Source: an uncultured Candidatus Peribacteria bacterium (GTDB lineage: Bacteria; Patescibacteriota; Gracilibacteria; UBA1369; UBA12470). Taken from it: a stretch of 64,000 nt of DNA. The DNA lies in NCBI GenBank assembly GCA_964344725.1, contig CAYFOI010000001.1, positions 61,762-125,761 of the forward strand. Direction: 5' to 3'. The notes below the pieces were generated by a model. The model worked only from the letters and a program-made list of their open reading frames with translations, did no database searches and was not told the origin of the DNA. Each line of letters opens with the position of its first letter. Position 1 is the stretch's first letter. The position numbers were made by a program, and so were the translations under genes. Shown piece by piece: positions 26,280-57,941 of the stretch.

Positions 26280-26313
26280 CTACTGACTACTGACTAAATC
26301 CTACTGACTGATA
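26268..26313. repeat. CTACTGA 7-nt word array spanning the rlmH stop to the next start
   Basis: TACCACTACTAG CTACTGA CTACTGA CTAAATC CTACTGA CTGATAA. A TGA or TAA occurs in each 7-nt unit. Confidence 0.9.
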
Positions 26314-26316
26314 AAA

Positions 26317-27405: not shown

Positions 27406-27465
27406 AGATAGTTATTGAATTATTTTATGTTACAATAATGCCAACATCATATAAATAAAAAAACA

Positions 27466-27804: not shown

Positions 27805-27815
27805 TCAAAACCACA

Positions 27816-28448: not shown

Positions 28449-28747
28449 AACCTGGCATACAAGCCACAAGCAGAGTGCCAATAGACGGATATGGTCAGCT
28501 GAGAACAGAAGATAATGGGGATGGAGAAACTACAATAACTTTCGAAGGGCAAAGCTGGATTGTGCCGACAGGCAGAACGGCTGCAATAGTCAAAGAAATG
28601 AGAAGACCAATGGCAAGGATGGATGGGGCAAGTGCAATGGATAAAATCCAGCTGCCGTCTCTCGCTAGTCTGGAAGAACCTCTAGCAAGAATAGAAATGC
28701 TGGTCAAACAATACGGTGGAAGAGCAGCCGAAGCCACACAGCCCTAG
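28445..28747 (+). CDS. hypothetical soluble protein (Arg-rich), start overlaps the sdpI-like stop (ATGA)
   Basis: 100-aa ORF with no recognised domain. Confidence 0.4.
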   Translation: MKPGIQATSRVPIDGYGQLRTEDNGDGETTITFEGQSWIVPTGRTAAIVKEMRRPMARMDGASAMDKIQLPSLASLEEPLARIEMLVKQYGGRAAEATQP

Positions 28748-28806
28748 CGCAACTTGCGAAAACATGGTATAATAACAGGAGTAAATAAAAACAAAACTCC
28801 TTTTAT

Positions 28807-35339: not shown

Positions 35340-37183
35340 TGACAAAGAATATTAAAAAAGGTGAATTAAAATTATACGAGCGCACGTCGAAACAAAAGAG
35401 ACGGGTCTCGTGGGTCCCGGCTCGCCTTGTTTCTAAGTTTAGTGAGGATGATTTTAATGAACAACAGCTGGGAGGGGGAGCCCGCGAGGGGGAACCTAAG
35501 GTACCCACTCGCGACAACTTAACAGGGTCGGATATAATAATGAAAAGCCTTATTAAAGAGGGAACAAAAGTCATATTCGGATATCCAGGAGGCGCGCTGA
35601 TCCCAATTTATGATGCAATGACCAACTATCCAGAGCTCAGGCATATCCTTGTAAGACACGAACAAGGCGCAGCTCTCGCCGCAGACGGATACGCTAGATC
35701 AACCGGCGAAGTTGGGGTTTGCCTAGGGACGTCAGGTCCAGGCGCAACCAACCTAGTCACGGGTATTGCAAACGCATACATGGACTCGGTCCCAATGGTT
35801 GCGATAACAGGACAGGTTAACAAAGGAATGCTAGGTAGCGACGCTTTCCAAGAAGTCGATATTACAGGAATTACGCTCCCGATTACGAAACACAATTATC
35901 TTGTCGACAATACAGAGGATCTCCCGATGATTATTAAGGAAGCTTTTTATATAGCAAAAAGCGGTCGCCCGGGTCCTGTGCATATCGATATTCCAGTCGA
36001 TCTTTGTAAAAAATCTTTAGACAGCTTTGAATATCCAGAAAAAATAGAAATCCCAGGCTTCGAAATCCCAGGTAAAGCGGACGAAGAAGCTGTGAAGAGA
36101 GCGGTAGAACTGATCCAAGAGTCAAAAAAACCGGTAATAATCTGTGGACATGGAGTTCCGATTTCAGGAGCATCCAAAGAGCTCACAGAACTTGCAGAAA
36201 GAAGCCACATTCCAGTAGTTCACACAATCCTCGGCAAAGGATCTTTCCCAGAAAGCAGTCCATTGTCATTCGGAATGCTAGGAATGCATGGTATGGCTTA
36301 TGCGAACTTCGCAGTTCATCACTCAGACTTAATAATCAATGTCGGATCACGTTTTGACGATAGAATTACAGGCAGCTTAGACGCTTTCGCAAAAGGAGCG
36401 AAGGTGATTCATGTCGATATCGACGCATCCGAGATCAACAAAAACGTTCCAGCATACTTGCCAGTAGTCGGTGACGCAAAAAAAGTCCTCAAGCAAATTC
36501 TCGAAATCCTGCCACACAAAAAACACCCAGATTGGCTTGATGAAATCGACGGATGGACTAAGAATTACCCACTCGCAGGCAAGGAAACAGAGATGCTCAC
36601 AGTTCCAAAAGTCCTTGTAAAACTGCACGAAGCAACAAAGGGTGATGCTCTTATAGTAACAGATGTAGGACAGCACCAAATGTGGTCAGCCCAATACTAT
36701 CCCCAAGACAAACCAAATAAATTCCACACATCAGGAGGTCTTGGCGCAATGGGATACGGACTCCCTGCAGCAATTGGAGCCCGTGTCGCAGATCCTGACG
36801 AAGAAATTTGGCTAATCAGCGGCGATGGAAGCTTCCAAATGAACATTCAGGAGCTTATGACAATTGTTCAGGAAAACATCGATATAAAGATCGCAATAAT
36901 GAACAATGGATTCCTTGGCATGGTCCGCCAATGGCAAGAAATGTTTTACGACAAAAACTACTCAGGCACACCGATAACAAGTCCAGATTACCAACTAATC
37001 GCAGAAGGCTACGGACTAAAACACTTAAGAGCTCGCACGGAGCAGGAGGCAGAAGACGTTATAAAAGCGGCTCGCGATCTCAAAGGTACGGTAATATGCG
37101 AATTTATAATAGAGCCAGAAGACAACGTATTTCCAATGGTCGCACCAGGCAAAGGACTAAAAGACACGTTGATTGGGAAATAG
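35339..37183 (+). CDS. ilvB: acetolactate synthase (AHAS) large subunit
   Basis: FGYPGGALIPIYDA, GLGAMGYGLPAAIGA, GDGSFQMN. The ATG overlaps the ilvD stop (TAATG). Homology starts near codon 62, and ATG 35540 is an alternative start. Confidence 0.9.
   Translation: MTKNIKKGELKLYERTSKQKRRVSWVPARLVSKFSEDDFNEQQLGGGAREGEPKVPTRDNLTGSDIIMKSLIKEGTKVIFGYPGGALIPIYDAMTNYPELRHILVRHEQGAALAADGYARSTGEVGVCLGTSGPGATNLVTGIANAYMDSVPMVAITGQVNKGMLGSDAFQEVDITGITLPITKHNYLVDNTEDLPMIIKEAFYIAKSGRPGPVHIDIPVDLCKKSLDSFEYPEKIEIPGFEIPGKADEEAVKRAVELIQESKKPVIICGHGVPISGASKELTELAERSHIPVVHTILGKGSFPESSPLSFGMLGMHGMAYANFAVHHSDLIINVGSRFDDRITGSLDAFAKGAKVIHVDIDASEINKNVPAYLPVVGDAKKVLKQILEILPHKKHPDWLDEIDGWTKNYPLAGKETEMLTVPKVLVKLHEATKGDALIVTDVGQHQMWSAQYYPQDKPNKFHTSGGLGAMGYGLPAAIGARVADPDEEIWLISGDGSFQMNIQELMTIVQENIDIKIAIMNNGFLGMVRQWQEMFYDKNYSGTPITSPDYQLIAEGYGLKHLRARTEQEAEDVIKAARDLKGTVICEFIIEPEDNVFPMVAPGKGLKDTLIGK
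35447..35513 (+). repeat. 67-nt G-rich hairpin module, copy 2 (inside annotated ilvB 5' end)
   Basis: See copy 1. The outer stem here is CGCGAG/CTCGCG. Confidence 0.9.
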
Positions 37184-37254
37184 TCAGTAGAAACTAACTT
37201 GCGCAAAGCGCTCCACTACTAAAATCCTCTAATCCTACAACCCTACAATCCTCC
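37181..37254. repeat. word array + GCGC-AAA-GCGC hairpin (37198-37214) + AATCCTNN 8-nt array between ilvB and ilvN
   Basis: TAGTCAGTAGAAACTAACTTGCGCAAAGCGCTCCACTACTAAAATCCTCTAATCCTACAACCCTACAATCCTCC, then ATG. Confidence 0.85.
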
Positions 37255-38096: not shown

Positions 38097-38137
38097 AAAA
38101 CTAATTCTAGAATTCTAAAACTCTAAAATTCTAACCC
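38091..38137. repeat. CTAGAATT/CTAAAACT 8-nt word array between ridA and ilvC
   Basis: AACTAGAAAACTAATTCTAGAATTCTAAAACTCTAAAATTCTAACCC. The same family occurs at 1051-1081, 6645-6669, 9073-9105 and (inverted) 17603-17634. Confidence 0.9.
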
Positions 38138-38146
38138 ATATACACT

Positions 38147-39190
38147 ATGCAAATGGATTTCGGTGGCACAGTCGAAGATGTCATCACAAAACAAGAATTC
38201 TCAATGGACAAAGCTAGAGAAACCATGAAAGATGAAACTCTAGCAATAATCGGCTACGGCGTTCAAGGTCCTGGCCAAGCTCTCAACCTCCGTGACAATG
38301 GATTCAACGTAATCATTGGACAACGCGAAGGAGGGAGGTCTTGGGACAAAGCTGTTGAGGACGGTTGGGTGCCAGGAGAAACACTCTTTCCAATAGAAGA
38401 AGCTTGTAAACAAGGAACAGTGATCTTTGATCTACTTTCAGACGCAGGACAAAAAGAAGTTTGGCCACGCATGAAGCCTCATCTTACAGAGGGGAAGACA
38501 CTTTATTTTTCACACGGATTTTCAGTAGTTTACAAAGACCAAACCGGCGTAGAACCACCGGAAAACATCGATGTCATTCTCGTAGCGCCAAAAGGCCCAG
38601 GAGCATACCTAAGAAAACTCTTCCTAGAGGGGAAAGGTGTTAACTCAAGTTATGCTATTCACCAAGACTACTCAGGCAAAGCTCGCGAAAAAGCGCTAGC
38701 AATAGGCATCGGGGTAGGCTCTGGGTTCCTATTCGAAACAACTTTCGAAAAAGAAGTATGGAGCGACCTAACAGGAGAAAGAGGAGTGCTAATGGGAGCG
38801 CTATGCGGAGTTATGGAAGCTCAATACAACGAACTACGCAAACGCGGACATAGCCCAAGCGAAGCTTTCAACGAGACCGTAGAAGAAGCAACACGTAGCC
38901 TTATCCCGCTCATCAACGAGAAAGGCATGGACTGGATGTTCGCCAACTGCTCAACAACAGCTCAAAGAGGCGCACTAGACTGGCGCCATGAATTTCGCAA
39001 GGCAACGGAGCCTGTATTTGAACGTCTATACGATAGCGTCAAAAGTGGCGAAGAAACTCGCATAGTTCTCGAAGCAAACAGCGCCGCAGACTATCGCGAA
39101 AAACTCGAAGCCGAGCTAAAAGAAATGCGCGAATCAGAAATGTGGCAGGCGGGTGAGACAACACGAAAATTGCGTCCAGAGAACAACTAA
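38147..39190 (+). CDS. ilvC: ketol-acid reductoisomerase (class I)
   Basis: IIGYGVQGPGQALNLRDNG, LLSDAGQ, FSHGF, ...CSTTAQRGA. Confidence 0.9.
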   Translation: MQMDFGGTVEDVITKQEFSMDKARETMKDETLAIIGYGVQGPGQALNLRDNGFNVIIGQREGGRSWDKAVEDGWVPGETLFPIEEACKQGTVIFDLLSDAGQKEVWPRMKPHLTEGKTLYFSHGFSVVYKDQTGVEPPENIDVILVAPKGPGAYLRKLFLEGKGVNSSYAIHQDYSGKAREKALAIGIGVGSGFLFETTFEKEVWSDLTGERGVLMGALCGVMEAQYNELRKRGHSPSEAFNETVEEATRSLIPLINEKGMDWMFANCSTTAQRGALDWRHEFRKATEPVFERLYDSVKSGEETRIVLEANSAADYREKLEAELKEMRESEMWQAGETTRKLRPENN

Positions 39191-39221
39191 GATTGCATCG
39201 TAAAAGCTGATAAGCGATAAT

Positions 39222-39341
39222 AACTTTCGAACGGACCATGTCGGGCCGAAAGTTTTGTCAGCCAGCAGGCCGCGCCGAAGGCGCACAGGCCACAACGCTC
39301 GCAAGAGCGCAGTATATAAAAGTTTCGCCGTAAGGCGAAAC
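39222..39341 (+). other. cluster of four consecutive GC-rich hairpins downstream of ilvC (includes H1 copy C)
   Basis: AACTTTCG/CGAAAGTT (39222-54); H1 GGCCGCGCCGAAGGCGCACAGGCC (39268-91); CGCTC-GCAA-GAGCG (39296-309); GTTTCGCC-GTAA-GGCGAAAC (39322-41). None is followed by a T-run. Confidence 0.7.
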
Positions 39342-39386
39342 ACAAATTACTATGTACTACCACTACTAACTACACACTACACAAAA

Positions 39387-40568
39387 ATGCCATACTTCGA
39401 AATATTTCTACTTCTAGCCAGCGTTTGGGCCATCGGCCGCGTATTTAGGAAATTCAATTGGCCACCTTTATTCGGTGAGATCCTCGCAGGAATAATCGTA
39501 GGACCTGTTGTCCTCGGCGTTGTTGAAGAAAGTGAAGCGATCAAAGTTATGGCAGAGCTGGGTATATTCTTCTTAATGCTCCACGCAGGATTGGAAACGA
39601 GTCCAAAAGATCTTTTTCAGGCATCTAAGAGAGCATTTTTAGTAGGGGTTGGAGGAGTAGTTCTACCTTTTGTGTTTGGCTTAGGAGTTTCACATCTATT
39701 TGGATATTCGCTAGGGGAGTCGTTGTTTATTGCAATGGGGCTTTCTATTACAGCCATTGCAGTAAGTGCAAAACTTTTCAAAGACTATGCGATAATGAGC
39801 TCGAGAGTTGCACATATAACGATGGGTGCAGCCATAATTGACGACATACTTGGCCTCATACTCTTCTCGGTAGTTCTAAGTATTGCAGACAGCGGATCAG
39901 TAGATGTAGTCGCACTATCTATTTTGATAGCGAAGATCATGGCGTTTTTTGGCATAGTCCTGTTTTTGGGAAGAAAATTTTTCAAACAACTTCACAAAAT
40001 GCTTTATACTGGTAACAAAGCATTTACTTTCACTATAGTCATAGCACTAGCGTTTGGTCTTTTGTCTGAAGTGATTGGTCTCCACATAATTATCGGAGCA
40101 TTTTTAGCAGGACTTTTTATTAGAGAAGAAATCGTAGAGATAAGCTTGTTTAACAAGATAGAAGATCGTGTTTACGGACTCGCTTACAGTCTTTTTGGGC
40201 CGATATTTTTTGCGTCGCTTGCCTTTCATTTAGATTTTTCAGCATTTGAAACGGCAGCACTCTTCACGGTAGTTGTGATACTTATAGCGACTGCAGGGAA
40301 AATTATCGGATGTGGGCTTGCAGCTAGAGTGACAAAACTGGGGCCGAAGGAATCCCTAGGTATAGGTCTAGCAATGAATAGCCGAGGGGCGGTAGAACTT
40401 ATTATTGCTTCAATTGGTTTAGAATATGGTGTCATCGGAGCAGAAGTGTTCTCGATTTTAGTCGTAATGGCATTCGCAACCACCATAATATCCATAGTAG
40501 GATTGAAACCACTCGTAAAATACTTTCCAAAAGGCACAGCAGCATCAACGCCTAGGGAAGAAATTTAA
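39387..40568 (+). CDS. cation:proton antiporter (CPA2/Kef-NapA type)
   Basis: Start MPYFEIFLLLASVW...GEILAGIIVGP is typical. About 11 TM. The track start 39255 reads through the hairpin cluster and is rejected. Confidence 0.8.
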   Translation: MPYFEIFLLLASVWAIGRVFRKFNWPPLFGEILAGIIVGPVVLGVVEESEAIKVMAELGIFFLMLHAGLETSPKDLFQASKRAFLVGVGGVVLPFVFGLGVSHLFGYSLGESLFIAMGLSITAIAVSAKLFKDYAIMSSRVAHITMGAAIIDDILGLILFSVVLSIADSGSVDVVALSILIAKIMAFFGIVLFLGRKFFKQLHKMLYTGNKAFTFTIVIALAFGLLSEVIGLHIIIGAFLAGLFIREEIVEISLFNKIEDRVYGLAYSLFGPIFFASLAFHLDFSAFETAALFTVVVILIATAGKIIGCGLAARVTKLGPKESLGIGLAMNSRGAVELIIASIGLEYGVIGAEVFSILVVMAFATTIISIVGLKPLVKYFPKGTAASTPREEI

Positions 40569-40640
40569 GTAAGTTGCAGCAAAAATGGAAAAATTGAAGC
40601 AGATGATGTATTCTCAGACTGTTCTTTAACCAAAACAAAC

Positions 40641-41030
40641 ATGTCACCAAACACAATCGTCCTAGCCAAGCTATTAGGACCAATTTTTGTGTTCGCAGGA
40701 CTTGGAATCGCTGTGAACAAGAAATTGATGAAAAAGATCGTAGAAGATTTCGGCAAAAACTATGGAATGCTCTATTTCATGGGAATGTTCACTATGATCG
40801 TAGGTATGATCATGGTAATAACTCACACTATTTGGACTAGTATCCCTGCTGGAATTATCACGGTATTTGGATGGATGGCAGCTATCAAAGGAGCTCTACT
40901 GATGGTAATTCCGGATCATCTTATGAAGCTTTCAAAGAAAATGAGCAAGACGACAGATCTGTATGTGCTTATCGGAATAATTTGGGTTGGGCTAGGGATC
41001 TATATAGGGTACGTGGGGTATTTTATGTAA
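40641..41030 (+). CDS. small hypothetical membrane protein (4 TM)
   Basis: 129 aa, hydrophobic. Confidence 0.5.
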   Translation: MSPNTIVLAKLLGPIFVFAGLGIAVNKKLMKKIVEDFGKNYGMLYFMGMFTMIVGMIMVITHTIWTSIPAGIITVFGWMAAIKGALLMVIPDHLMKLSKKMSKTTDLYVLIGIIWVGLGIYIGYVGYFM

Positions 41031-41031
41031 A

Positions 41032-41802
41032 TTAATCATGTGTTAACTGAGCAAGGAGCAAACCGTCTTGATCGAGTTCGCTAAGATTTGCAAAAACCCA
41101 TTCTCCACCAAATTGATCGACGGCCTCATTAAGATGAGTAGAAACCAAATCGTTTCTTCTATCTGTGGGTAAAAGCGAATTTTCAGTAATAAAAACCTGG
41201 CGTCTGGTATTTGAAAGCAAGGCCAATATTTCTGGCAAATCTTGTCCAAAGACATGTCCTCTAAGAAGAGCGTGAGGAATCTCTCTTCTCAAAGCTACAA
41301 TGCCTTCTCTATGAGCCCTTCTGTGAAATTGTAGCTGCAGATCAAAAACGTCGCGATCTTCATCAGGAAGGCCTAAGCCCGTATCGATCAAAGTTACATT
41401 TTCTGAATCAGGAAGCCTAGCCCCAGGTCTAATAGTAGTGTCAACTACAGTAGGCGAATCAATCTGGAGACGCCCCCCATATTGCGCATAGAGTTGAGCA
41501 AACTGCTCATGCGGATCATTATCTGCCAATATGACTCTTTTAGCACGCCTTGCTACTTGCAAAGCAATTGGCACGACACCAGGCCCTGAAAACAAATCCA
41601 AAAGCTCGTCACATTGCAGTACCTTTAATAAGCCCAAAAAATAAGCACGTTGCATCGGTCTGCTTGCCTCCATCCAATCTCGAATATCTCGTCTTACCGC
41701 CTTTTCTGGCATGCCAGTCTGCCTAGATATATGACCAGCATGTATATCTTCCCTAGCTTTCCATGTTCTATCAAAAGGTCTTGTTTTGCCAAATAAAGGC
41801 AT
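41032..41802 (-). CDS. hypothetical protein with Rossmann methyltransferase-like motif I (Arg-rich)
   Basis: LLDLFSGPGVVPIAL...VILADND resembles SAM-MTase motifs I/II. I saw no clear (D/N)PP(Y/F) motif. Confidence 0.45.
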   Translation of the reverse strand: MPLFGKTRPFDRTWKAREDIHAGHISRQTGMPEKAVRRDIRDWMEASRPMQRAYFLGLLKVLQCDELLDLFSGPGVVPIALQVARRAKRVILADNDPHEQFAQLYAQYGGRLQIDSPTVVDTTIRPGARLPDSENVTLIDTGLGLPDEDRDVFDLQLQFHRRAHREGIVALRREIPHALLRGHVFGQDLPEILALLSNTRRQVFITENSLLPTDRRNDLVSTHLNEAVDQFGGEWVFANLSELDQDGLLLAQLTHD

Positions 41803-41824
41803 AAGCTACGCATTAGAAGGCGGT

Positions 41825-41853
41825 ATCATAAAACGAAGAAGGGCTCGCGTCAA
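41825..41853 (-). promoter_or_regulatory. promoter TTGACG-N17-TATGAT
   Basis: Read on the minus strand: -35 at 41853-41848 and -10 at 41830-41825. Confidence 0.5.
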
Positions 41854-41878
41854 GATCATGCGGAGTGCGGGACTGGGG

Positions 41879-42817
41879 CTATCGTTTCCTCTTCCTAGAA
41901 GCAATATATCTCTCGATAGCCTGTTTGGTTGTAACCCAGTTCCGCCCATCTTTGTGGGCTTCTAATTTTCCTTGAGTAGCCAATTTTCTTAAATAAGCTG
42001 CAGAATAAGGTGAATCTTTGGAAAGTTCCTTAAGGCTAATATATTGTTCATCTTTTTTTTGGCTAGGGCTCAAAATACCTAAATAAATATTCAAACTTCG
42101 AATAACAGCTTGCGCAATAAATTCGCAAAGTGGGGCATAATTACCATCATCAGCTAAAGACAAAACCCTATAATAACGTTTCCGATCATTCTTTAGGATA
42201 ACTGCAATAGGATAGCCTTTACTCATTATTAAAATATTCATAACAAGACGAGCAGTTCTTCCATTGCCATCCCAGAAAGGGTGGATATAAGCCAATTTAT
42301 GATGCAAGAGAGCAGAAAACTCTACAGGATGCAACTTCCTTTTATTATTAGAAGCCCAATCAATAATACTCTTCATTTGAGAAGGAACTTGCAAATAACT
42401 TGGTGGTTTATGATCAGCTCCCCCAATAATGACATCTCCGTCGCGATATTTACCTGCTATATCTCTTTGAGAATCACGAACAACTAAAGTATGTAACTCT
42501 TTAATCAAATGTTCGGAGATAGTATGCCTTTTACTGTTATCAATAAGTTCGTAAAGATATTCCAAAGCTTCTTTATGATTTTTTGCTTCCAAATGATCTT
42601 TTAAAGGTTTTTCTTTAATAGTGATGCCTTCTTGTATTACCCAGAAAGTCTCTTTTAGGGTAAGGGAATTACCTTCGATAGCATTAGAATTATAAGTCAT
42701 TTCTATTTGAAATTGCTCTCGAATTTTGGCAAGTACGCTAGGATGAATTGGCCTTAATGAGTTGAGTTTCTTAAGTTTCTCTTCTAGGGCACGAATTGTA
42801 TTTCCTGAAAGATGCAT
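41879..42817 (-). CDS. Fic-family AMPylase with intramolecular inhibitory motif and C-terminal HTH
   Basis: HPFWDGNGRTARL Fic motif; SNAIEGN matches (S/T)xxxE(G/N). The C-terminal ISLKELSKDSPYSAAYLRKLATQGKLEA is HTH-like. Start moved to ATG 42817 because a consensus promoter lies inside the longer track ORF. Confidence 0.8.
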   Translation of the reverse strand: MHLSGNTIRALEEKLKKLNSLRPIHPSVLAKIREQFQIEMTYNSNAIEGNSLTLKETFWVIQEGITIKEKPLKDHLEAKNHKEALEYLYELIDNSKRHTISEHLIKELHTLVVRDSQRDIAGKYRDGDVIIGGADHKPPSYLQVPSQMKSIIDWASNNKRKLHPVEFSALLHHKLAYIHPFWDGNGRTARLVMNILIMSKGYPIAVILKNDRKRYYRVLSLADDGNYAPLCEFIAQAVIRSLNIYLGILSPSQKKDEQYISLKELSKDSPYSAAYLRKLATQGKLEAHKDGRNWVTTKQAIERYIASRKRKR

Positions 42818-42850
42818 AAGGTTAAAATAAGGTACGATAGGCTCAAAAAC

Positions 42851-42879
42851 ATTATATCGTACCTTAAGCAATAAGTCAA
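42851..42879 (-). promoter_or_regulatory. promoter TTGACT-N17-TATAAT
   Basis: Read on the minus strand: -35 at 42879-42874 and -10 at 42856-42851. Confidence 0.6.
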
Positions 42880-42985
42880 TTTTTTATGCAAAAGCAACGT
42901 TGGCTCAGTGCTGTAAGGCGCAAAAATTTCGCAAAATTCCGTTTGGAGCTCCTTATGGAAGGAAGTGCGGACTGTGGTTGTCTTT

Positions 42986-44101
42986 TTAGCTTAGGAAAAA
43001 CTCGCCTTGGCGATGAATTAAACGGAAAGCCTCCATAACTCTAGCTATTTCTTCTTCAGACTCATCACCGCAGATTGTCAAAGGAGATCCGTGGTCTCTT
43101 AGGCGTGCAAAAGTATCCACGACAGGGTCAAGTCCAGAAGCTTCGTGAGGTTCAAGTGCTACACGATTCACCAATATATCGTAGAATCTATCTTGTAAAT
43201 CAGGGAGATGTAGCCAATGCATATCACCTTGCTTAGCACGAAATCCCAACCCCTTGGCAAAAGCATCATAGTCATAATTAACACCTGAAGCTGGAATTAA
43301 AGTAAATCTTTTATCTCTAGCACCTGCTAATGACAAGCATTTCATAGAATCGGCACCGAGATCATAAGCAACATACATAGCAAGTAAGCCGAGAGCTCTA
43401 GAAGGATGTAGTTTTAATGCTTTCTTAAATCTGCCACACGCCTGGACTTTTTCATCATAACCAGCTTTCTTTGGGGACATGCCGCTGCCACAGCGAACAA
43501 TCCTAACAGCTGTACCATCTTCGACCTGTTCAGTATCTAAACCAAGTCGCCAAACTTCTCCAGATATATGAAACCTCTGTCCTTTTTCAACACCTATAGC
43601 CAAATCGACAGAAAATGTCCCTGATCCACTACCACCTTTGCAAGACAAATAACAGCCAGTTCCAGGTATAGTTTCTTTATAAAACATTCCACGTTGTTTA
43701 GAATACTTAGGATGTCTTGCAAAAAAGTCCATTCCAAATCGACTAATCCAAAACTGTGCATTAGTCAAGATCTGATCTAGAACATGATCTAAGTCTGTAG
43801 AGGTAGTCATGTATTTAAAAGCATTAGACTTAAAGAAGTCTTTAAACTGAGTAACAACGCCTAAGTCACCTAGAAACGCAGCAACTCTATCGGATTGATC
43901 TGCAGATGGAGGATCAGAAATAAGACCTTTTAGCTTAAGATACTTCATAAATCCATCAATAACCCTACGAGGCATTTCTACAGATGGAGCAAGATCTAAT
44001 GCTCCCTGATCAGGCAGTAGCAAGCCATCTCCGCCAGGTATAACAAGCCTATCTGTTTTAATCCCTTGATCTTCCATAAGAATAAATATAACGACAGACA
44101 T
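42986..44101 (-). CDS. hypothetical protein (372 aa, no recognised domain)
   Basis: Track ORF trimmed to ATG 44101, because codons 1-31 overlap the tRNA-Gly gene and its terminator. Confidence 0.5.
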   Translation of the reverse strand: MSVVIFILMEDQGIKTDRLVIPGGDGLLLPDQGALDLAPSVEMPRRVIDGFMKYLKLKGLISDPPSADQSDRVAAFLGDLGVVTQFKDFFKSNAFKYMTTSTDLDHVLDQILTNAQFWISRFGMDFFARHPKYSKQRGMFYKETIPGTGCYLSCKGGSGSGTFSVDLAIGVEKGQRFHISGEVWRLGLDTEQVEDGTAVRIVRCGSGMSPKKAGYDEKVQACGRFKKALKLHPSRALGLLAMYVAYDLGADSMKCLSLAGARDKRFTLIPASGVNYDYDAFAKGLGFRAKQGDMHWLHLPDLQDRFYDILVNRVALEPHEASGLDPVVDTFARLRDHGSPLTICGDESEEEIARVMEAFRLIHRQGEFFLS

Positions 44102-44107
44102 AATAAA

Positions 44108-44133
44108 ACAAAAAAGCCTTCTAGTCAAGGCCT
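44108..44133 (-). terminator. weak intrinsic terminator after tRNA-Gly
   Basis: Minus-strand GCCUU-GACUAG-AAGGC followed by UUUUUUGUUUU. Confidence 0.4.
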
Positions 44134-44208
44134 TGGAGCGGGTAACGGGAATTGAACCCGTGTTTACTGATTGGCAACCAGTCGTAATAGCCACTATACG
44201 ATACCCGC
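44134..44208 (-). tRNA. tRNA-Gly (anticodon GCC), CCA encoded
   Basis: Manual cloverleaf: acceptor GCGGGTA/TACCCGC, anticodon stem ACTGG/TCAGT with loop TTGCCAA, T arm ACGGG-TTCAATT-CCCGT, discriminator T, CCA. 75 nt. Confidence 0.9.
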
Positions 44209-44262
44209 CTGTTTTTCGATGTGCGAAGACATTATACGAAATCGAATTCCAAACACAACATT

Positions 44263-44294
44263 AAGATATTTTTAATTCTTAGAGCGACCTAGCG
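44263..44294 (+). repeat. module M3 copy of the mosaic intergenic element
   Basis: AAGATATTTTTAATTCTTAGAGCGACCTAGCG aligns with 55907-55940 and 23023-23057. Confidence 0.5.
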
Positions 44295-44354
44295 ATTAGC
44301 CTCGGGAACTAAAAAAATTAAAAAATCCACAAGCTACTAGCTACAACCTACGAG

Positions 44355-45635
44355 CTATACTTCAGCCTGTCTCTTCATAATCCCCAAAATAACCTGATTA
44401 GTCTTTTCCATACCCGCAACTGTAATTTCCGCTAAATTCTGCATAGTTTTTTCCGCAGTCTCACCAATAATTCCATTTGGTCCTGATGCACGATATCCAT
44501 CCAAAGCTGCAAAAGCCGCAGACAGAGCGCTGTGAGCCGAACTAGCAACTTTCACAGCACAACCCATATTGGCTCCATTACAGAACATCCCTCCAAGATC
44601 ATTCGCTACATTATCAATCGCATAAGTAATAAGTCGCAGATCTTTTTTCTTCTGGTAAACACAAGCCGCAGCCGCACCAACTCCAGCAGCAATAGCACAC
44701 TGGCAGATAGGGGACAACTCTCCGGCAAAAGCTTTCACATAAGCGTTCAGCAGATGCGAAAGGGCAATACTCCTAAGCATCTTTATCCTTCCGATACCAT
44801 AATGCTTTGCCCAAAAATACGGTACCAAAATCGCAACAATACCCTGATTGCCAGACCCTCCGCTGCTCATAACAGGTAGGGACATCCCAGACATACGACC
44901 ATCAGAAGCTGAAGCCACAGCAATTTTCGCTTCAGAAAACAGACCTTTCTTGACTTCACCCATATCTTGTAAACGCTTAACTTCAGCAGCATACCCATCA
45001 TACTTCAGCCCTTCGTGGCTTGCTTCAAGGTTCATCTCAATGCCTTCTTCAATATATTTAAGATCAGCAGGCGTGGCTTGATCAGCCGCTTCAATAAGGT
45101 CTGCAAGAGTGGATCTCTCGAGTTTCTTTTTATATACCGACAAAGTCATGCCCTTTTTATGACCAGACTTTTTCTTGACGCTCACACCATTTTTCTTAAG
45201 CTCAATTAAATTCGTATGACTCTTCACGATTTTAGCGATTCCTTCACCTTTATCTGTTTTCACTTTAACGCGAATATATAAATACGGCTTTGAAAAATTC
45301 GGTTTCAAAACAACCTCATGAGCAGCAAGTAGCTTCTTAGCTTCCTTGAGATCTTTCTTCTGAACATTTTGCAAAACGCTGAGCCCATCTTGTGGATCAC
45401 CGCAAAGAGCTCCAAGAGCCGCAGCAACAGGTATGCCTATTGCACCTTCCGCGCCAGGAATAGCAACATTCATTCCATTCTTGAACGTCCCAGCATCCAA
45501 CATGACAGTCACGCGCCAAACCTTCCCGCCAACAACATTGCTCGCATAAGCAGCAGCAAGCGCTACCGCAACAGGTTCGGTACAACCCATTGCAGGCATC
45601 ACTTCATGCTTGAGAACTGATTTAAGGAGAGTCAT
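44355..45635 (-). CDS. UPF0597 / L-cysteine desulfidase family protein (serine dehydratase alpha-like)
   Basis: N-terminal ...PAMGCTEPVAVALAAAYA is the hallmark of the YhaM/CdsB family; ~426 aa. Confidence 0.7.
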   Translation of the reverse strand: MTLLKSVLKHEVMPAMGCTEPVAVALAAAYASNVVGGKVWRVTVMLDAGTFKNGMNVAIPGAEGAIGIPVAAALGALCGDPQDGLSVLQNVQKKDLKEAKKLLAAHEVVLKPNFSKPYLYIRVKVKTDKGEGIAKIVKSHTNLIELKKNGVSVKKKSGHKKGMTLSVYKKKLERSTLADLIEAADQATPADLKYIEEGIEMNLEASHEGLKYDGYAAEVKRLQDMGEVKKGLFSEAKIAVASASDGRMSGMSLPVMSSGGSGNQGIVAILVPYFWAKHYGIGRIKMLRSIALSHLLNAYVKAFAGELSPICQCAIAAGVGAAAACVYQKKKDLRLITYAIDNVANDLGGMFCNGANMGCAVKVASSAHSALSAAFAALDGYRASGPNGIIGETAEKTMQNLAEITVAGMEKTNQVILGIMKRQAEV

Positions 45636-45636
45636 T

Positions 45637-45710
45637 TAACTAGGAACTAGGGACTAGAAACTAGGAACTCGGAGCCTAGCTAGCTAAATAGCTAACAAGC
45701 TAACTAGCTA
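45637..45710. repeat. CTAGGAA 7-nt array followed by AGCTAANN 8-nt array
   Basis: TAACTAGGAACTAGGGACTAGAAACTAGGAACTCGGAGCCTAGCTAGCTAAATAGCTAACAAGCTAACTAGCTA, ending on the pnp stop. Confidence 0.9.
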
Positions 45711-47836
45711 TCCATGGCATCTTTACGCGACAGATTATACCGTCCCTCTTTGTCGATTTCTAGCAGTTTTACCTTGATTTGATCGCCCTCTTTCACAACA
45801 TCCTCAACTTTCTCGACACGTTTATTCTCAAGTTTAGATATGTGAACTAGACCTTGTTTACCAGGCATGAACTCAACAAAAGCACCAAAATCCATGATCT
45901 TAACAACCTTAGCTTCATAGATAGCACCGACCTCAGGATCGGCAACGATACTTTTGATCCAGTCGATAGCTTTTTGACCTTTCTCCTGGTCTGGAGCGGT
46001 AACCATGACAAGTCCATCATCTTCAATATCGATTTCAACTTCGCATTCAGCGGTGATTTTTTGAATAGTTTCGCCACCTTTGCCAATAACTTCGCGAATC
46101 TTTTCAGGATCAATCTGGATGTTAGTAATCATAGGCGCATAAGGGGACATATTCTCGCGAACAGCGGGGATAGCCTCAAGCATTTTGCCCATAATATGCA
46201 TGCGACCTTCATTAGCTTTTGCGAGTGCCTCACGCATGATGTCTACAGTCAATCCTTTGACTTTAATATCCATCTGCAAAGCCGTAATACCATTCTTAGT
46301 ACCAGTAACCTTGAAGTCCATATCTCCAGCAAAGTCCTCCATTCCTTGGATATCCGAAAGAATCACATACTTTCCACCAGGGGTGAGAACTCCATTTTCA
46401 TTCTCAGTAACAAGCCCCATCGCAATTCCTGAAACAGGAGCAACAATAGGAACTCCAGCATCCATAAGACTAAGAGTAGATCCACAAACGCTAGCCATCG
46501 AGCTTGACCCGTTACAAGCCAAAATCTCCGACACAACACGCATTGTGTAAGCAAACTTCTCTTTCTCAGGAATCATTAGCTCCAAAGCACGTTCCGCTAG
46601 ATAACCATGTCCGATTTCACGTCTAGAAGTCCCGCGTAGTGGCCTAGCTTCTCCAACAGAATAAGGAGGGAAGTTGTAGTGATGCATATACCTTCTAGTA
46701 TCATCTTGGTCCATAGTGTCTACAAGCTGAGCTGCACCTGGAGATCCAAGAGTTGTGATAGTAAGAGCTTGAGTTTCACCTCTTTGAAAAATCGCACTAC
46801 CATGAGTACGAGGAAAAACACCAACCTTACAAGTGATAGGCCTGATTTCTTCTGGTTTACGACCATCTATACGTACTTCTTTATCCAAAATATTCTTACG
46901 CATTCTCTTTTTGAAAGCCGTATCAAGAGCGTCCGCTAAGTCTCTTTCAGTAAACACCTCTTCTTCGAGCTGAGAAGCATATTTTTCTAGAAGTTTATCT
47001 TCAAGAACATGCAATTTGTCCTTAACTTGATTCTTGTCACCCGTAACGCCGTCCAAATCTGCCTCAGTTATAGCCTCTTGGACAGCATTTGCAGCTTCTT
47101 CAGAAACAGCAGCCTCTGTATGTTCACGAACTTCAACACCGACTTTGTCACGAAGTTCTATCTGCAATTCACAAAGCTTCTTAATATGCTGATGAGCCAA
47201 TTCAAGAGCTTCAAGCATTTTCTCTTCAGTTACTTCTTTTGCACCAGCTTCAACCATAGTAATAGCATCAGTAGTACCGGCTACAATCAGATTAAGTTGC
47301 CCTTCTTCTTCTTGTTCAAGAGTTGGATTTACAATAAGTTCATCATTGATCATACCGATCCGAATACCTGCAATAGGCCCTTCGAAAGGCATTCCAGAAA
47401 GCATCAAAGCAGTGCTCGCTGCAGTCATAGCCGTCGTTCCTGGGTCAACCTCCATATCCGCAGACAAGACAGTACAGATAACCTGCACATCATTCCTCAT
47501 CATCTTAGGGAAAAGCGGTCTAAGAGGTCGATCAATCAAACGAGAAGTAAGTACAGCCTTATCCGAAGGTCGACCTTCACGTTTAATGAATCTACTACCG
47601 CTTATTTTGCCAGTAGCGTAAAATTTCTCTTCATAATCGCACATAAGAGGGAAAAAATCAGTGCCCTCCCGAGAGCCACCCATGGTAGTGGTAGCCAAAA
47701 TAACAGTATCGCCTAAGCTGGCAACAACAGATCCATGTGCTTGACCCGCTAATTCGCCAGTTTTCAATGTAAACTCGCGACCAGCAAGATCAATAGAAAC
47801 AGAATGTTCCATGTCTTTTTTAGGGTTAAATTCCAA
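45704..47836 (-). CDS. pnp: polyribonucleotide nucleotidyltransferase (PNPase)
   Basis: Two RNase PH domains, KH (GKGGETIQKI) and S1 (FGAFVEF). The track start is TTG at 47836, and ATG at 47812 (MEHSVS...) is an alternative. Confidence 0.9.
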   Translation of the reverse strand: MEFNPKKDMEHSVSIDLAGREFTLKTGELAGQAHGSVVASLGDTVILATTTMGGSREGTDFFPLMCDYEEKFYATGKISGSRFIKREGRPSDKAVLTSRLIDRPLRPLFPKMMRNDVQVICTVLSADMEVDPGTTAMTAASTALMLSGMPFEGPIAGIRIGMINDELIVNPTLEQEEEGQLNLIVAGTTDAITMVEAGAKEVTEEKMLEALELAHQHIKKLCELQIELRDKVGVEVREHTEAAVSEEAANAVQEAITEADLDGVTGDKNQVKDKLHVLEDKLLEKYASQLEEEVFTERDLADALDTAFKKRMRKNILDKEVRIDGRKPEEIRPITCKVGVFPRTHGSAIFQRGETQALTITTLGSPGAAQLVDTMDQDDTRRYMHHYNFPPYSVGEARPLRGTSRREIGHGYLAERALELMIPEKEKFAYTMRVVSEILACNGSSSMASVCGSTLSLMDAGVPIVAPVSGIAMGLVTENENGVLTPGGKYVILSDIQGMEDFAGDMDFKVTGTKNGITALQMDIKVKGLTVDIMREALAKANEGRMHIMGKMLEAIPAVRENMSPYAPMITNIQIDPEKIREVIGKGGETIQKITAECEVEIDIEDDGLVMVTAPDQEKGQKAIDWIKSIVADPEVGAIYEAKVVKIMDFGAFVEFMPGKQGLVHISKLENKRVEKVEDVVKEGDQIKVKLLEIDKEGRYNLSRKDAMDS

Positions 47837-47884
47837 ATAAAAAAATGACGCAAAAACGCGCCTAAAGATAACTGAGAAACGAAT

Positions 47885-47985
47885 TTTAGGTAGTAGCTTG
47901 TGGCTTGTAGCTTGTAGTATATATTGCGCGAAGCGCTCAATTACTACTGACTAATTCCTACTCTCTACTGACTACTGACTAAAAT
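47885..47985. repeat. tripartite element: GTAG-word arm, TTGCGC-GAA-GCGCTCAA hairpin (47924-47940), CTAC/CTGA-word arm
   Basis: TTTAGGTAGTAGCTTGTGGCTTGTAGCTTGTAGTA...TTGCGCGAAGCGCTCAA...TTACTACTGACTAATTCCTACTCTCTACTGACTACTGACTAA. Confidence 0.85.
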
Positions 47986-48049
47986 TCACCTCCCAGCGCT
48001 GAGGGATTCACGATGAATGCCAAGATTTCAAAGAACTAATATTGTAAGT

Positions 48050-48313
48050 TTATTTGCGAAGTTTCAACTTAGTGACCAATTCGTCATAAGAATCTTTGCT
48101 CTTGTTCTTCAGGTAATTAAGAAGACCTCTTCTTTTTCCAACCATCTGAATAAGACCTCTCCTAGAATGGTTGTCTTTAGGATGAGTCTTCAAATGCTCG
48201 CTCAAATCATTGATTTTCTGAGTTAGAACAGCGATTTGAACCTGTGGAGAGCCAGTATCTTTATCGTGGACTTGATGTTTTTTAATAACTTTCTTCTTTT
48301 TATCGCTCTTCAT
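48050..48313 (-). CDS. rpsO: ribosomal protein uS15
   Basis: [34 protein letters not shown]...; 87 aa; upstream of pnp as in many bacteria. Confidence 0.9.
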
Positions 48314-49080: not shown

Positions 49081-49120
49081 TCCTAAATAAGCGTTTAATC
49101 TCCCCTTCAAATAAGCAAAA

Positions 49121-49148
49121 GGCCTCGTAGAAATGCGAGGTCTTTTTT
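49121..49148. terminator. bidirectional intrinsic terminator
   Basis: GGCCTCG-8 nt-CGAGGTC, with T6 downstream on the plus strand and a shorter U-run (UUUUG) downstream on the minus strand. Confidence 0.7.
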
Positions 49149-49168
49149 ACGAAAAGATTTTGTTATTG

Positions 49169-49260
49169 TCGAAAGAGCATCTAGCAGCACTAACAAGATT
49201 TTTGGCGATAGGCGAAAGAACGTACTTATGCGAAGTGAAAGAGCCTATCGACCAAAAATC
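49169..49260. repeat. mosaic element modules M1 + M2; M2 forms a 17-bp long-stem hairpin abutting the corA stop
   Basis: GATTTTTGGCGATAGGC (49197-213) pairs with GCCTATCGACCAAAAATC (49243-60), with one bulged A. The 5' arm is shared with 55864-55880. Confidence 0.7.
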
Positions 49261-50199
49261 TCATAACCATCTCTTCAACTTAAAGAAAAGCAACATCACC
49301 AAAACAACCATCGCCATCGCACCCGTAATACCAATGAAAACTTGAGGATTCTCAGCATAAGGTAGTGCAACATTCATCCCATACAAACCTGTAAGGAACG
49401 TCAGCGGCAGCATGATTACAGAAAAAATCGTAAGAACCTTGATCACATTGTTTGTGGTATGAGAAATTATCGATTCGTTGGTTTCCTGGAGAGAAATCAT
49501 AAGATCTTTCATGCCCTCAAGATTGCTCCAGATTTTCTCAACTTTATCGACCAAATCATCAAAATAAATGTCCAAGTTTTCAGGCAAGAATTGTTTGTTC
49601 TTATGCTCAAGTTGAGCCATAACGGTCCTCTGTGGTCCAATAATCCTCCTCATCGTAATAATATCCTTCTTCAAAATCAAAATATCCTTAAGCATATCAT
49701 GCTGCTCAGTACCCGTACCGAAAACACTTCTTTCAATAGTTTTTGTATTTTTTGAAAGGTAATCCAGAAGTCCAAAAGAATCGTTAAGCATCGCATCAAT
49801 AATTTCATAAAGAAGAAATCCAGTACCATTAGCCATATAAGCACGTCTTTGTTTCAGAGATTCACCACATTTATCAAAAAGCTCATTCAGAGGTTTCAAA
49901 ACTCCGTCATGAATAGTAATCAAGTAATTTTGACCTATAAATATATCGACCTCCTCGGTCACCATCGCCTTACGTCTTTTATCAAAATGAGGGAAATGCA
50001 GAACTATGAATAGATATTTGCCATATTCATCAATCTTTGGCCTTTGATTTTCAGAGGCACAATCTTCAAGATCAAGTTCGTGGAACTTATGTTTCTTTTT
50101 CAGAGCTTCTAAAGTTTCTTGGTCAGGTGCGACAATATCGGTCCAAACTGTCTTCTTAAACTTAACTCTTTCAATTTTTGTTTTTGATTCAGCAGGCAT
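49261..50199 (-). CDS. corA: CorA-family magnesium/cobalt transporter
   Basis: YGMNV motif between two C-terminal TM helices; ~312 aa. Confidence 0.85.
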   Translation of the reverse strand: MPAESKTKIERVKFKKTVWTDIVAPDQETLEALKKKHKFHELDLEDCASENQRPKIDEYGKYLFIVLHFPHFDKRRKAMVTEEVDIFIGQNYLITIHDGVLKPLNELFDKCGESLKQRRAYMANGTGFLLYEIIDAMLNDSFGLLDYLSKNTKTIERSVFGTGTEQHDMLKDILILKKDIITMRRIIGPQRTVMAQLEHKNKQFLPENLDIYFDDLVDKVEKIWSNLEGMKDLMISLQETNESIISHTTNNVIKVLTIFSVIMLPLTFLTGLYGMNVALPYAENPQVFIGITGAMAMVVLVMLLFFKLKRWL

Positions 50200-52631: not shown

Positions 52632-52712
52632 TAGTAGTTTGTAGTGGTAGTAGGTAGTAATGGAGCGCTTCGCGCAAATACACTACGTACTACGGATTAT
52701 GTACTACATTTG
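52632..52712. repeat. tripartite element: TAG/GTAG arm, GGAGCGC-TTC-GCGCAAA hairpin (52662-52678), CTAC/GGATTA arm
   Basis: TAGTAGTAGTTTGTAGTGGTAGTAGGTAGTAATGGAGCGCTTCGCGCAAATACACTACGTACTACGGATTATGTACTAC. Confidence 0.85.
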
Positions 52713-52775
52713 CAACCTTCCCCCTGTTTAGAGTATTATTCGCTCTGAACTTTTTACAAATAAATTAAAACGGCA

Positions 52776-55187: not shown

Positions 55188-55267
55188 TATAGAAATTTTT
55201 CAGGAAAATTTAATGTGAGAGAAGTATTATAAGTAATGCTCCTCTTTTGATTTTCTCTAAAAGACAA

Positions 55268-55296
55268 TTGACCTGTAGGTGTAAAAAGTATATACT
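55268..55296 (+). promoter_or_regulatory. promoter TTGACC-N17-TATACT with overlapping palindromes (AGTATATACT, GTACAT)
   Basis: -35 at 55268-73 and -10 at 55291-96, upstream of the TA pair. Confidence 0.55.
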
Positions 55297-55323
55297 AAGT
55301 ATGTACATCGTAAACACCGCTGT

Positions 55324-55605
55324 ATGAGCACGATAATCAATGTAAAAACCGATCCAAAGGTTAAAAGCACAGCTCAAAAAATAGCATCAGAGCTAGGACT
55401 CAGCTTAAGTAGCGTAATAAACGCTTATTTAAGAGAATTCATTCGTACAAAAACAATACGTGTAAGCCTAGAGACACCTTCTGAAAAGCTAAAACAAGCT
55501 ATATCAGAAGCGAAAGAAGAACTCGAAAGGGGAAAGGTTGTATCTTTTGATCAGGCAAAAGATGCAATCGATTACCTCGATCAGTTCATCAAAAAGAAGA
55601 AATGA
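55324..55605 (+). CDS. RelB/DinJ-family antitoxin
   Basis: INVKTDPKVKSTAQKIASELGLSLSSVINAYLREFIR is a ribbon-helix-helix DinJ-like N-terminus. The stop overlaps the toxin start (ATGA). Confidence 0.8.
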   Translation: MSTIINVKTDPKVKSTAQKIASELGLSLSSVINAYLREFIRTKTIRVSLETPSEKLKQAISEAKEELERGKVVSFDQAKDAIDYLDQFIKKKK

Positions 55606-55865
55606 AAATTAGCTACTCAAAGAAATTTTTGAAAAAATTTCAAAAAAGCCCCCGAAAAATAAAGCTAGCATTCAAAAAAAGGTTAACATTATTTGTAGAA
55701 AACGAATATCACCCAAGCCTCAACAACCATGCGCTATTAGGTGAATACGAAAGCTATAGGAGTATAAATATAACAGGTAATTGGCGTGCGATTTTTCAGA
55801 AATTAAAAAATGATGAAATTGTATTCTTCATCATGCTGGGGACGCATAGTGAACTTTATAAATGA
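55602..55865 (+). CDS. RelE/YafQ/ParE-superfamily toxin
   Basis: 87 aa; ...HPSLNNHALLGEYESYRSINITGNWRAIFQ...GTHSELY. Confidence 0.75.
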   Translation: MKISYSKKFLKKFQKSPRKIKLAFKKRLTLFVENEYHPSLNNHALLGEYESYRSINITGNWRAIFQKLKNDEIVFFIMLGTHSELYK

Positions 55866-56053
55866 TTTTTGGCGATAGGCCAAAAACTCCTAACAGATTG
55901 CCACGTAAGATTTTTTTAAGGCTTAGAGCAACCTTAGAAACGTCTCGCCAGATAACAGGCCGCTCCAAAGGAGCACAGGCCCCATACAAATAAACGCGTT
56001 CTAAAAGAACGCTTCCTAATAATGCGAGACTTTCTCGAGAGCGAAAAGCATTA
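55864..56053 (+). repeat. mosaic intergenic element, long version (M2, M3, H1 copy D at 55958-55981, second hairpin, M4)
   Basis: Basal stem GAAACGTC (55937-44) / GACTTTC (56028-34) encloses ~83 nt that are absent from the otherwise homologous copy at 23023-23092. Confidence 0.7.
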
Positions 56054-56061
56054 AAACATCT

Positions 56062-56541
56062 CTAATCCACCTCCTCCGCGATCCCGCTCAACTTGTGTAC
56101 AATAATATCTTGCGATAATTCACCGGAACTTATTGCAAACTCCAGATCCTCAGGGTCAGCTTCGCCATCTACATAATCTACAGTGAAATCTCCATAAGGT
56201 GCTTCGTAATATACAGACCACTCTTCTGGATAAGTAGACACACCTTCAAAACTATAGGTCTCAATGGTGTCGGTATCATCTCCATCTATTGTTATCTCAA
56301 AACCATCTGCAACAGTCGTAAGATTTACATAGTAGATGTCATACATTTCCCCATCTATCTCAACATTCTTAATTGCATACCCACGTGCTTCTTGAAAAAC
56401 AGCGATAATATCTTGAACCGTATCGTTGAATTCAGAACTAAGTAAATGTGCTCTCCACGCGCCAATAGAAACAGCAGAAGTCATTGCAACGATTGTAACA
56501 ACTATAACCAACTCTAATAATGTAAATCCTGACCTTTTCAT
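56062..56541 (-). CDS. prepilin-type N-terminal cleavage/methylation domain protein (pseudopilin)
   Basis: MKRSGFTLLELVIVVTIVAMTSA. The start overlaps the rsmI stop. Confidence 0.8.
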   Translation of the reverse strand: MKRSGFTLLELVIVVTIVAMTSAVSIGAWRAHLLSSEFNDTVQDIIAVFQEARGYAIKNVEIDGEMYDIYYVNLTTVADGFEITIDGDDTDTIETYSFEGVSTYPEEWSVYYEAPYGDFTVDYVDGEADPEDLEFAISSGELSQDIIVHKLSGIAEEVD

Positions 56542-57619: not shown

Positions 57620-57689
57620 CGCAAAAGATGGTAAGTTATTTAAGCAATAACATCAACTCAACCACCCCAACACTCCAAGTTTCAAATTC

Positions 57690-57941
57690 CTAGTTCCTAG
57701 TTTCTAGTTTCTTCTTCAAAAGCTCACTCCTCCTCTGCTCCAACTTAGAAGTCAGCTCTCTAAGGTGATGAATCAGTTTATCCAAAACTTTTAAATTATC
57801 CCAATATTTACCTCGAGAAAGCACGCCATTAATTTTCTCAATACATCCCATAATAGACCTTTCGATGAATCCCCCTGCCAAAGGCATTATGTTAAACGTT
57901 ACATCGACGCAGTCCTTATTTTCGCAAGGGAGTTTCTTCAT
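57690..57941 (-). CDS. small hypothetical protein
   Basis: 83 aa. The start overlaps the upstream stop by 4 nt. The last codons (..LETRN) are built from the CTAG word array at 57686-57714. Confidence 0.4.
   Translation of the reverse strand: MKKLPCENKDCVDVTFNIMPLAGGFIERSIMGCIEKINGVLSRGKYWDNLKVLDKLIHHLRELTSKLEQRRSELLKKKLETRN

Follow-up and report, generated by a model that had tools for sequence, protein, structure and literature searches.

Nested repeated hairpin-forming elements in the intergenic DNA of a Peregrinibacteria-like bacterium

Introduction

ERIC (IRU) and Correia (NEMIS) elements are said to be imperfect palindromes of ~100-150 bp that lie in transcribed intergenic DNA, and their size classes reportedly reflect internal deletions and insertions of tens of bp at fixed sites, with the ends of the element conserved. 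Small dispersed repeats (SDR) of 21-27 nt are likewise reported from Nostoc punctiforme. According to Di Nocera et al. (PMC3733652), REPs are palindromes of 20-40 bp whose distance from the 3' end of a convergent or co-directional ORF is below 20 bp. They sometimes supply the stop codon and can pair into larger structures, and a REP has an unpaired GTAG or CGTC tag at one end (PMC3733652).

Here we analyze a 64-kb stretch of bacterial DNA (the window), in which a 196-nt gap (55866-56061) separates the converging stops of a yafQ-type toxin gene and a pilin-like gene. The DNA of this gap, counted from the first overlapping hairpin (55864-56061), consists of nested small repeated hairpin-forming elements. 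Genomes of the CPR/Patescibacteria, to which the host belongs, are small and are usually called poor in repeats and mobile DNA.

Host genome and relatives

The window has a GC content of 41%, and the use of TGA as the stop in 12 of its 65 ORFs indicates that the host follows the standard genetic code. The nearest homologues of its LeuRS are metagenome proteins (77% and 74% identical), the next ones (59-69% identity) come from MAGs of Patescibacteria, Gracilibacteria and Peregrinibacteria, and a DUF8173 gene of the window shows 71% identity to a Crystal Geyser Peregrinibacteria genome (GCA_001873565.1). Judged by these protein similarities, the host is a Peregrinibacteria/Gracilibacteria-class (CPR) bacterium; a cyanobacterium, which the GC content and the heptamer repeats described below might suggest, is rejected on the basis of the LeuRS and DUF8173 homologues.

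Short contigs identical to the window are present in ENA assemblies of PRJEB17505 (L001, L154 and L170). One of them, L170, extends the home genome by 1.35 kb that hold no further repeat copy, and the sequence read from the host itself thus comprises the 64-kb window plus 1.35 kb. Syntenic loci were compared from four relatives: L029-L032 (LeuRS 77% identical), L033 (74%), L155-L160 (the Crystal Geyser Peregrinibacteria) and L163, a 1.3-Mb genome that shares its 1.3-Mb contig with L166 and whose LeuRS is 59% identical to that of the window.

Long hairpins with a common stem and different apices

Read from left to right, the gap contains hairpin 'a' (55864-55888), an 18-nt linker and long hairpin A (55908-56061); it is flanked on the left by a relB/yafQ pair (55324-55865, plus strand) and on the right by the pilin-like gene (56062-56541, minus strand, TAG stop). 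The original prediction had aligned the two arms of A with a second site in the window, and that alignment holds: 23023-23061 matches 55907-55944 at 82% (36.5 bits), and collinearly with it 23067-23095 matches 56028-56056 at 86% (35.6 bits). When 39 intergenic stretches were compared all against all, both arm matches exceeded the best of 20 shuffled sets (33.7). Without its central 83 nt, A (55907-56061) aligns globally with the second site (23023-23102) at a score of 65, compared with 3.6±2.7 for 2000 shuffles.

At both sites GAAACGTC pairs with GACTTTC around a bulged C, as had been predicted, and at the second site this stem closes directly (GGAAACGTCC-GAA-GGACTTTCC, 23053-23074), while in A the same stem encloses 83 nt (55945-56027) with two further hairpins. 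This inner stem, GAAA(C)GTC/GACTTTC, is the top part of a longer hairpin in which the outer arms, GATTTTTTT.../...AAAAAAATC, pair too. The second site is described here as long hairpin B (23025-23102), a single hairpin of 78 nt with the apex GTCC-GAA-GGAC. Its folding energies are -25 (plus strand, z ~ -3.8) and -28 kcal/mol (minus strand, z ~ -3.2), and A folds with the same architecture. The arms of A (55907-55944 and 56028-56061) are homologous to those of B, and two compensatory pairs distinguish the outer stems of A and B (GCTT/AAGC vs TGTT/AACA).

The 83-nt segment of A stands in place of the 5-nt CGAAG apex of B, and its ends, TCGC...GCGA, lengthen the stem. It contains the micro-hairpin H1, treated below, and hairpin 'c' (55996-56012, minus strand, GCGTTC-TTTTA-GAACGC), which is followed by GTTTATTTGT on the minus strand and so resembles an intrinsic terminator for the pilin-like gene.

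A third member of the family had been taken for a partial copy at 44263. The M3 module on which that claim was based is indeed there, and it is part of a complete 63-nt hairpin, C (44265-44327), which includes a 3' arm and combines the outer stem seen in A and B with a distinct apex (GCGATTAGCC core), located between an SDH_alpha-family gene and tRNA-Gly. The outer stem common to A, B and C reads GAT(T/A)TTTT.../...AAAA(A/T)ATC. A covariance model of the basal stem and arms, built from B and from A without its insert, matches C from end to end with E = 4e-5. In the window the model finds only B and C, A being missed because of its 83-nt insert, and it has no match in 91 kb of the relatives' DNA. 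A scan of the contig collection with the M3 pattern gave 27 matches, all of them chance matches in unrelated phyla. Neither the pattern scan, nor the covariance model, nor the loci of relatives thus gave a copy of the A/B/C arms in any other genome.

The surroundings of C contain other features. A Fic/DOC-family gene with an HTH domain (41879-42871) lies just upstream of tRNA-Gly and C, and its neighbors (40641-41802 and 42986-44131) have no assigned function; this region may be another accessory segment.

A second sub-family, related to A/B/C, consists of hairpin 'a' and long hairpin D. The sequence GATTTTTGGCGATAGGC that the original prediction had placed at 55864 and 49197 is the same at 17 of 17 bases: the first 17 nt of 'a' and D are identical, CAAAAA follows, and 'a' equals D minus its central 39 nt. 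Hairpin 'a' (GATTTTTGGC-GATAG-GCCAAAAAC) overlaps the TGA stop of yafQ, and D (49197-49260; GATTTTTGGCGATAGGC...GCCTATCGACCAAAAATC) adjoins the corA gene (49261-50199, minus strand) at its TGA stop with a spacing of 0 nt. L033 retains D in the orthologous gap beside corA (73 nt at 82% identity, E = 1e-12), where one pair has changed in a compensatory way (GATAGGC/GCCTATC in the window, AATAGGC/GCCTATT in L033) and the apical loop sequence is conserved, and the corA gap of L029 has the same short form as 'a', GTTTTGCC-GATA-GGCAAAAC. The persistence of D at the orthologous site of L033 is equally compatible with selection and with a resident repeat.

The pattern of one outer stem with differing apices is thus found in A/B/C and again in D vs 'a'. 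Since 'a' is D without its apex and the apex of A is filled, a single 196-nt gap holds both an apex-less and an apex-expanded hairpin. Variation in the apices of L029 runs parallel to this (GCC-GATA-GGC vs GC-GAA-GC).

One of the modules proposed earlier dropped out. Copies of a TCGAGAGAGCATCAGCA-like sequence had been listed at 49169, 1760 and 56036; no second copy with up to 3 mismatches is present at these positions, the window has just one other match, which is intragenic, and two or more matches arise in 4 of 100 shuffles.

The micro-hairpin H1

H1 is a discrete unit of 26 nt that is separate from the long hairpins. Four copies are found in the window, with 0 expected by chance. The copy in the apex of A (55956-55981, plus strand, CAGGCCGCTCCAAAGGAGCACAGGCC) is preceded by TAA and has a compensatory change from G:C to U:A relative to the other copies. 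The second (39266-39291, plus strand) belongs to a 77-nt block of three hairpins (39264-39340), the third (8006-8031, minus strand) lies in a 332-nt leader upstream of rplJ, and the fourth (4497-4521, minus strand) shares bases with the TAA stop of a gene at 4521-5093 (minus strand) and is located upstream of pilB. The 64 kb hold three long hairpins of the A/B/C type and two of the D/'a' type alongside these four. When metagenome contigs were scanned with the H1 pattern, the matches listed included at least two real copies, both from Patescibacteria, one right after a TAA stop (L112, 5454-5479) and one between rplK and rplA that touches a TAA (L139, 784-808), the rest being high-GC coding sequence; a scan of viral contigs for H1 gave no match.

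Substitutions in the stem of the six H1 copies all keep the pairing (100% of stem cells), one being compensatory and two leading to wobble pairs on the sense strand. TAA precedes four of the six copies (P ~1e-5 to 2e-4); three of these are real stop codons, and the fourth lies inside the apex of A. At 4497, 39266, 55956, L112 and L139 the hairpin has the same orientation as the gene that precedes it, with 8006-8031 as the exception, and every copy in the window is followed by another small GC-rich hairpin.

Comparison with relatives for presence or absence of the modules, an approach that the original prediction had named, uncovered two indels. In L112 the H1 sequence (CAGGCCGCGCCGAAGGCGCACAGGCC) is an exact 26-nt presence/absence difference from the same-genus sequences L165/L166 (5986-6001) and L168; it follows the TAA stop of the preceding gene without any spacer, 14 nt separate it from the start codon that comes next, its indel junction is ambiguous by at most 1 nt, and it is identical to the window copy at 39266-39291 in 26 of 26 positions. 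In the window, the 77-nt block at 39264-39340, which holds H1 and two more tetraloop hairpins, is a clean, unpolarized indel relative to L156, with conserved sequence on both sides.

The leader that contains the third H1 copy is a feature in its own right. It is a 332-nt non-coding region (7820-8151) upstream of rplJ (L10) and divergent from miaA, with several hairpins in addition to H1, and the Rfam L10 leader was not detected upstream of rplJ.

Gene context in the window and in relatives

In L033 1 nt, and in L163 27 nt, separate the stop of leuS from that of the pilin-like gene. Everything that lies between these two genes in the window (55188-56061, plus strand), namely a 136-nt spacer, relB/yafQ and the mosaic gap, is therefore specific to the lineage of the window. 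The same holds for 22291-23105 (plus strand), which contains a 210-aa gene (22297-22929) and the 176-nt B gap, because the stops of the flanking MGMT-like and DUF8173 genes are 1 nt apart in L156. A and B each lie at the 3' edge of lineage-specific genes that are set between ancestral convergent genes, and both are missing from the orthologous gaps of the relatives. A precise empty site of a long hairpin alone was not found; absence of the hairpin was seen only together with absence of the extra genes.

The long hairpins are also placed close to stop codons. The distance to the neighboring stop is 1 nt for A (pilin-like gene) and 3 nt for B (TAA of the DUF8173 gene, 23106-24323, minus strand), and D abuts the stop of corA, so A, B and D begin 0-3 nt after the stop of a minus-strand gene (joint P ~1e-3), and 'a' overlaps that of yafQ. 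As originally noted, A, B and the element at 49197 all occupy convergent gene gaps. The adjacency to stop codons fits either a target preference or a role of a stem-loop near the stop in the 3' UTR.

Other repeats and conserved regions

Several further kinds of repeat are present in this DNA. Stop-rich tandem repeats with a period of 7 or 8 (TAGTACG, CTACTGA, TAACTAA, TAGAATTC and CTAGTTC types) adjoin gene ends in many gaps, including 15774-15876, 17605-17702, 24414-24453, 26271-26310, 1052-1086, 6644-6678, 9072-9114, 38100-38139, 7256-7291, 7875-7910, 45621-45666, 57674-57719, 47958-47983, 52634-52713 and 39346-39373 in the window and 5840-5872 in L029. They often begin with the TAG that ends the gene and continue as far as a canonical terminator, and because the period is not a multiple of three they place stops in all three frames. 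Over all genes, the number of downstream stops is in modest excess (2.97 vs 2.48 per 42 nt), with 5-6 in the subset that has the repeats. The period-7/8 repeats resemble the STRR heptamers of cyanobacteria, whereas the host here is Peregrinibacteria-like. A small hairpin module, TTGCGC(G/A)AAGCGCTC, followed by CTAC-type heptamers, is found at 37199-37221, 47924-47953 and 52648-52677, one of them inverted.

Among the relatives, L029 has a mosaic of three hairpins, ~100 nt long, in two gaps (5757-5836 and 700-770); its two copies are ~82% identical over 148 aligned columns and differ in the apex of one hairpin. A single gap of L033 contains two copies of TATTTATTT(C/T)TAGTTCGAAGTGAC (583-606 and 770-795).

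A direct repeat of 68 nt that is 91% identical (33654-33721 and 35447-35514) lies in the 5' parts of two neighboring genes, one ilvD-like (33645-35339) and one for an acetolactate-synthase-like large subunit (35339-37183); a common N-terminal extension, or a repeat inserted into the genes, may account for it. Two intergenic islands stand out by their conservation: 19030-19119, in the leader of a hisS-like gene, is 91% conserved in L156 (13744-13834), and 50185-50294, in the gap between corA and a divergent gene, is 87% conserved in L033 (1765-1874). Neither has an Rfam match, the proteins of the genomes that share the two islands are only ~70-75% identical, and the islands are possibly regulatory leaders.

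Comparison with described repeat classes

Like the REP/BIME elements of Enterobacteria and Pseudomonas, including REPIN doublets, the elements described here are small imperfect palindromes with a bulge that gives them an orientation, and they are extragenic, follow the 3' ends of genes, are near the stop codon or supply it, and form mosaics and larger hairpins (PMC3733652, PMC3116915). H1, a repeated imperfect palindrome of 26 nt, falls within the REP size range of 20-40 bp, and apart from the copy at 8006-8031 it is extragenic near the 3' ends of co-directional or convergent ORFs. BIMEs are recurrent combinations of a few short motifs in varying order and orientation; here modules are shared among several gaps, in copies too few for a grammar of this kind, the TCGAGAGAGCATCAGCA-like module being insignificant. 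In contrast to REPs, neither H1 nor the long hairpins have a GTAG or CGTC tag (it is absent from the flanks of the six H1 copies on either strand), and no RAYT is found among the proteins scanned. They also differ from REP/BIME in their low copy number in 64 kb, in their CPR host and in that H1 copies are single and do not form inverted doublets.

The long hairpins resemble ERIC and Correia elements in that they appear to vary internally while their ends persist. They are unlike these elements in having no sequence similarity to them, no identified TA target duplication or long terminal inverted repeats, and three to five copies in the DNA covered here. H1 can be compared with the SDRs of Nostoc, as it too is a hairpin of ~26 nt that looks precisely inserted in conserved DNA, nests in other repeats and lies beside tandem heptamers; it differs from them in phylum and sequence, in occurring in more than one genus and in the association with a TAA before it.

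As for MITEs, the outer stems of the long hairpins could act as terminal inverted repeats, and presence or absence at orthologous sites is seen for H1 and, together with the extra genes, for the long hairpins. No direct repeat or clear target-site duplication flanks A, B, C, D or 'a', and a parent IS was not found. A Pfam scan of window proteins detected neither a transposase nor a RAYT nor an integrase, the direct scan covering ORFs outside 17700-30189 and 38147-48313. Nested palindromic repeats of a REP/BIME/ERIC-like nature are a known kind of element; their CPR host is unusual.

Origin of the mosaic and competing explanations

The gap at 55864-56061 is probably a compound of lineage-specific repeated extragenic palindromes of the REP/BIME/ERIC-like kind. 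Folds that outdo those of shuffled sequences (z = -3.2 to -6.5) fit this reading. Of the two readings that the original prediction had left side by side, a mosaic repeat is supported, on sequence comparison, by modules that recur in varied combinations, by varying apices and by the H1 indels, while the evidence argues weakly for a structured RNA family.

With regard to the mode of spread, any enzyme and any function at the RNA level, we infer the following. A would be a long hairpin of the B type with an H1 unit and a terminator-like hairpin filled into its apex, and 'a' would be a D-type hairpin that has lost its apex, such units being gained and lost at the DNA level. Small hairpins may insert into single-stranded or loop DNA, and slippage or template switching across the hairpin may delete apices or make them palindromic. 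The outer stem would survive because both arms are needed for the hairpin; a variable apex on a conserved basal stem would then be expected, since loops would be the sites of hairpin insertion and slippage deletion and stems left with one arm would be unrecognizable. Once in place, the elements would be transcribed as stem-loops that start 0-3 nt after stop codons, and by analogy with REPs they most likely serve as 3'-end protecting or translation-proximal structures.

It is also conceivable, if unlikely, that the long hairpins belong to one structured RNA family, a cis element of the 3' UTR or a small RNA, with the basal helix as its core and an apex that is free to vary. The compensatory outer-stem changes that separate A from B and D from its L033 orthologue, the conserved apical loop of D and the start of the hairpins 0-3 nt after stops are all consistent with this proposal, as is the fold of C, which is much better in the sense direction of the upstream gene, the minus strand (-16 vs -8 kcal/mol). 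However, A, B and D fold about equally well on either strand, and G:U asymmetry, used as a strand indicator, gives a signal only for C and two H1 copies. At the gathering threshold as well as at an E-value threshold the window has a single Rfam match, tRNA-Gly, and a search with the 206-nt region at 55860-56065 alone gave none at E up to 10 except a chance match of E = 1.4. A and B are missing from the orthologous gaps of relatives, and the genes upstream of the hairpins are functionally unrelated (pilin-like, DUF8173, SDH_alpha-family and corA). In addition, hairpin 'c' in the apex of A would end minus-strand transcripts before they reach the 3' arm.

The mosaic of extragenic palindromes must also be set against recombination sites of the attC kind, by means of which, or together with which, relB/yafQ and the 210-aa gene would have entered; this we regard as improbable. 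Like attC sites, the long hairpins are imperfect palindromes with extrahelical bases (here a bulged base) and a variable terminal structure (5 to 83 nt) at the 3' end of an acquired gene, and A and B do lie at the 3' edge of lineage-specific genes where the flanking stops are 1-27 nt apart in relatives. Toxin-antitoxin cassettes, moreover, are common integron cargo. Yet the attC core sites (RYYYAAC R'' and GTTRRRY R') are absent from both strands of all four gaps, and the scanned window proteins include no integrase. Neither C nor D is beside an extra gene, the closest homologues of yafQ (71% and 64% identity) have no such element downstream, and the copies are single and 33 kb apart rather than in an array.

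The idea that the hairpins are ordinary bidirectional intrinsic terminators, alike by shared constraint or by chance, draws on their position in convergent gaps and on the terminator-like hairpin 'c' but is the least probable of all, as their sequence similarity is far above chance, whichever strand is read, the 5' arm holds the T-tract and the 3' arm the A-tract, which leaves the stem with no U-tract after it, a terminator scan detected none at the long hairpins (only the inner hairpin at 55996-56012 qualified, on the minus strand), and canonical terminators exist apart from them, such as the one with an A-tract, GC-rich stem and T-tract at 49117-49150 in the gap of D itself.

Perspectives

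That H1 is identical in genomes whose LeuRS proteins are ~59% identical, and looks exactly inserted after a stop codon, points to active movement of a very small piece of DNA. A bolder proposal, which we put forward as a tentative and rather doubtful one, is that H1 is a self-contained mobile hairpin of 26 nt that moves within and between genomes of Gracilibacteria-class CPR bacteria and lands right after TAA, usually a stop codon, and that the GATTTTT...AAAAATC hairpins mark junctions that capture new genes, such as the toxin-antitoxin pair and the 210-aa gene, between convergent genes; together these would amount to repeat-driven gene gain in streamlined genomes, with the help of a hypothetical enzyme. 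H1 would be a handle for finding the enzyme that moves it.

The elements also offer markers for strain typing and can help in the study of how genes enter tight convergent pairs. For annotation they advise caution, as conservation of a basal stem beneath a variable apex is not by itself proof of an RNA gene. More broadly, the intergenic DNA of this lineage appears to be built from a vocabulary of small hairpins that are gained, lost and nested, despite the image of CPR genomes as poor in repeats.
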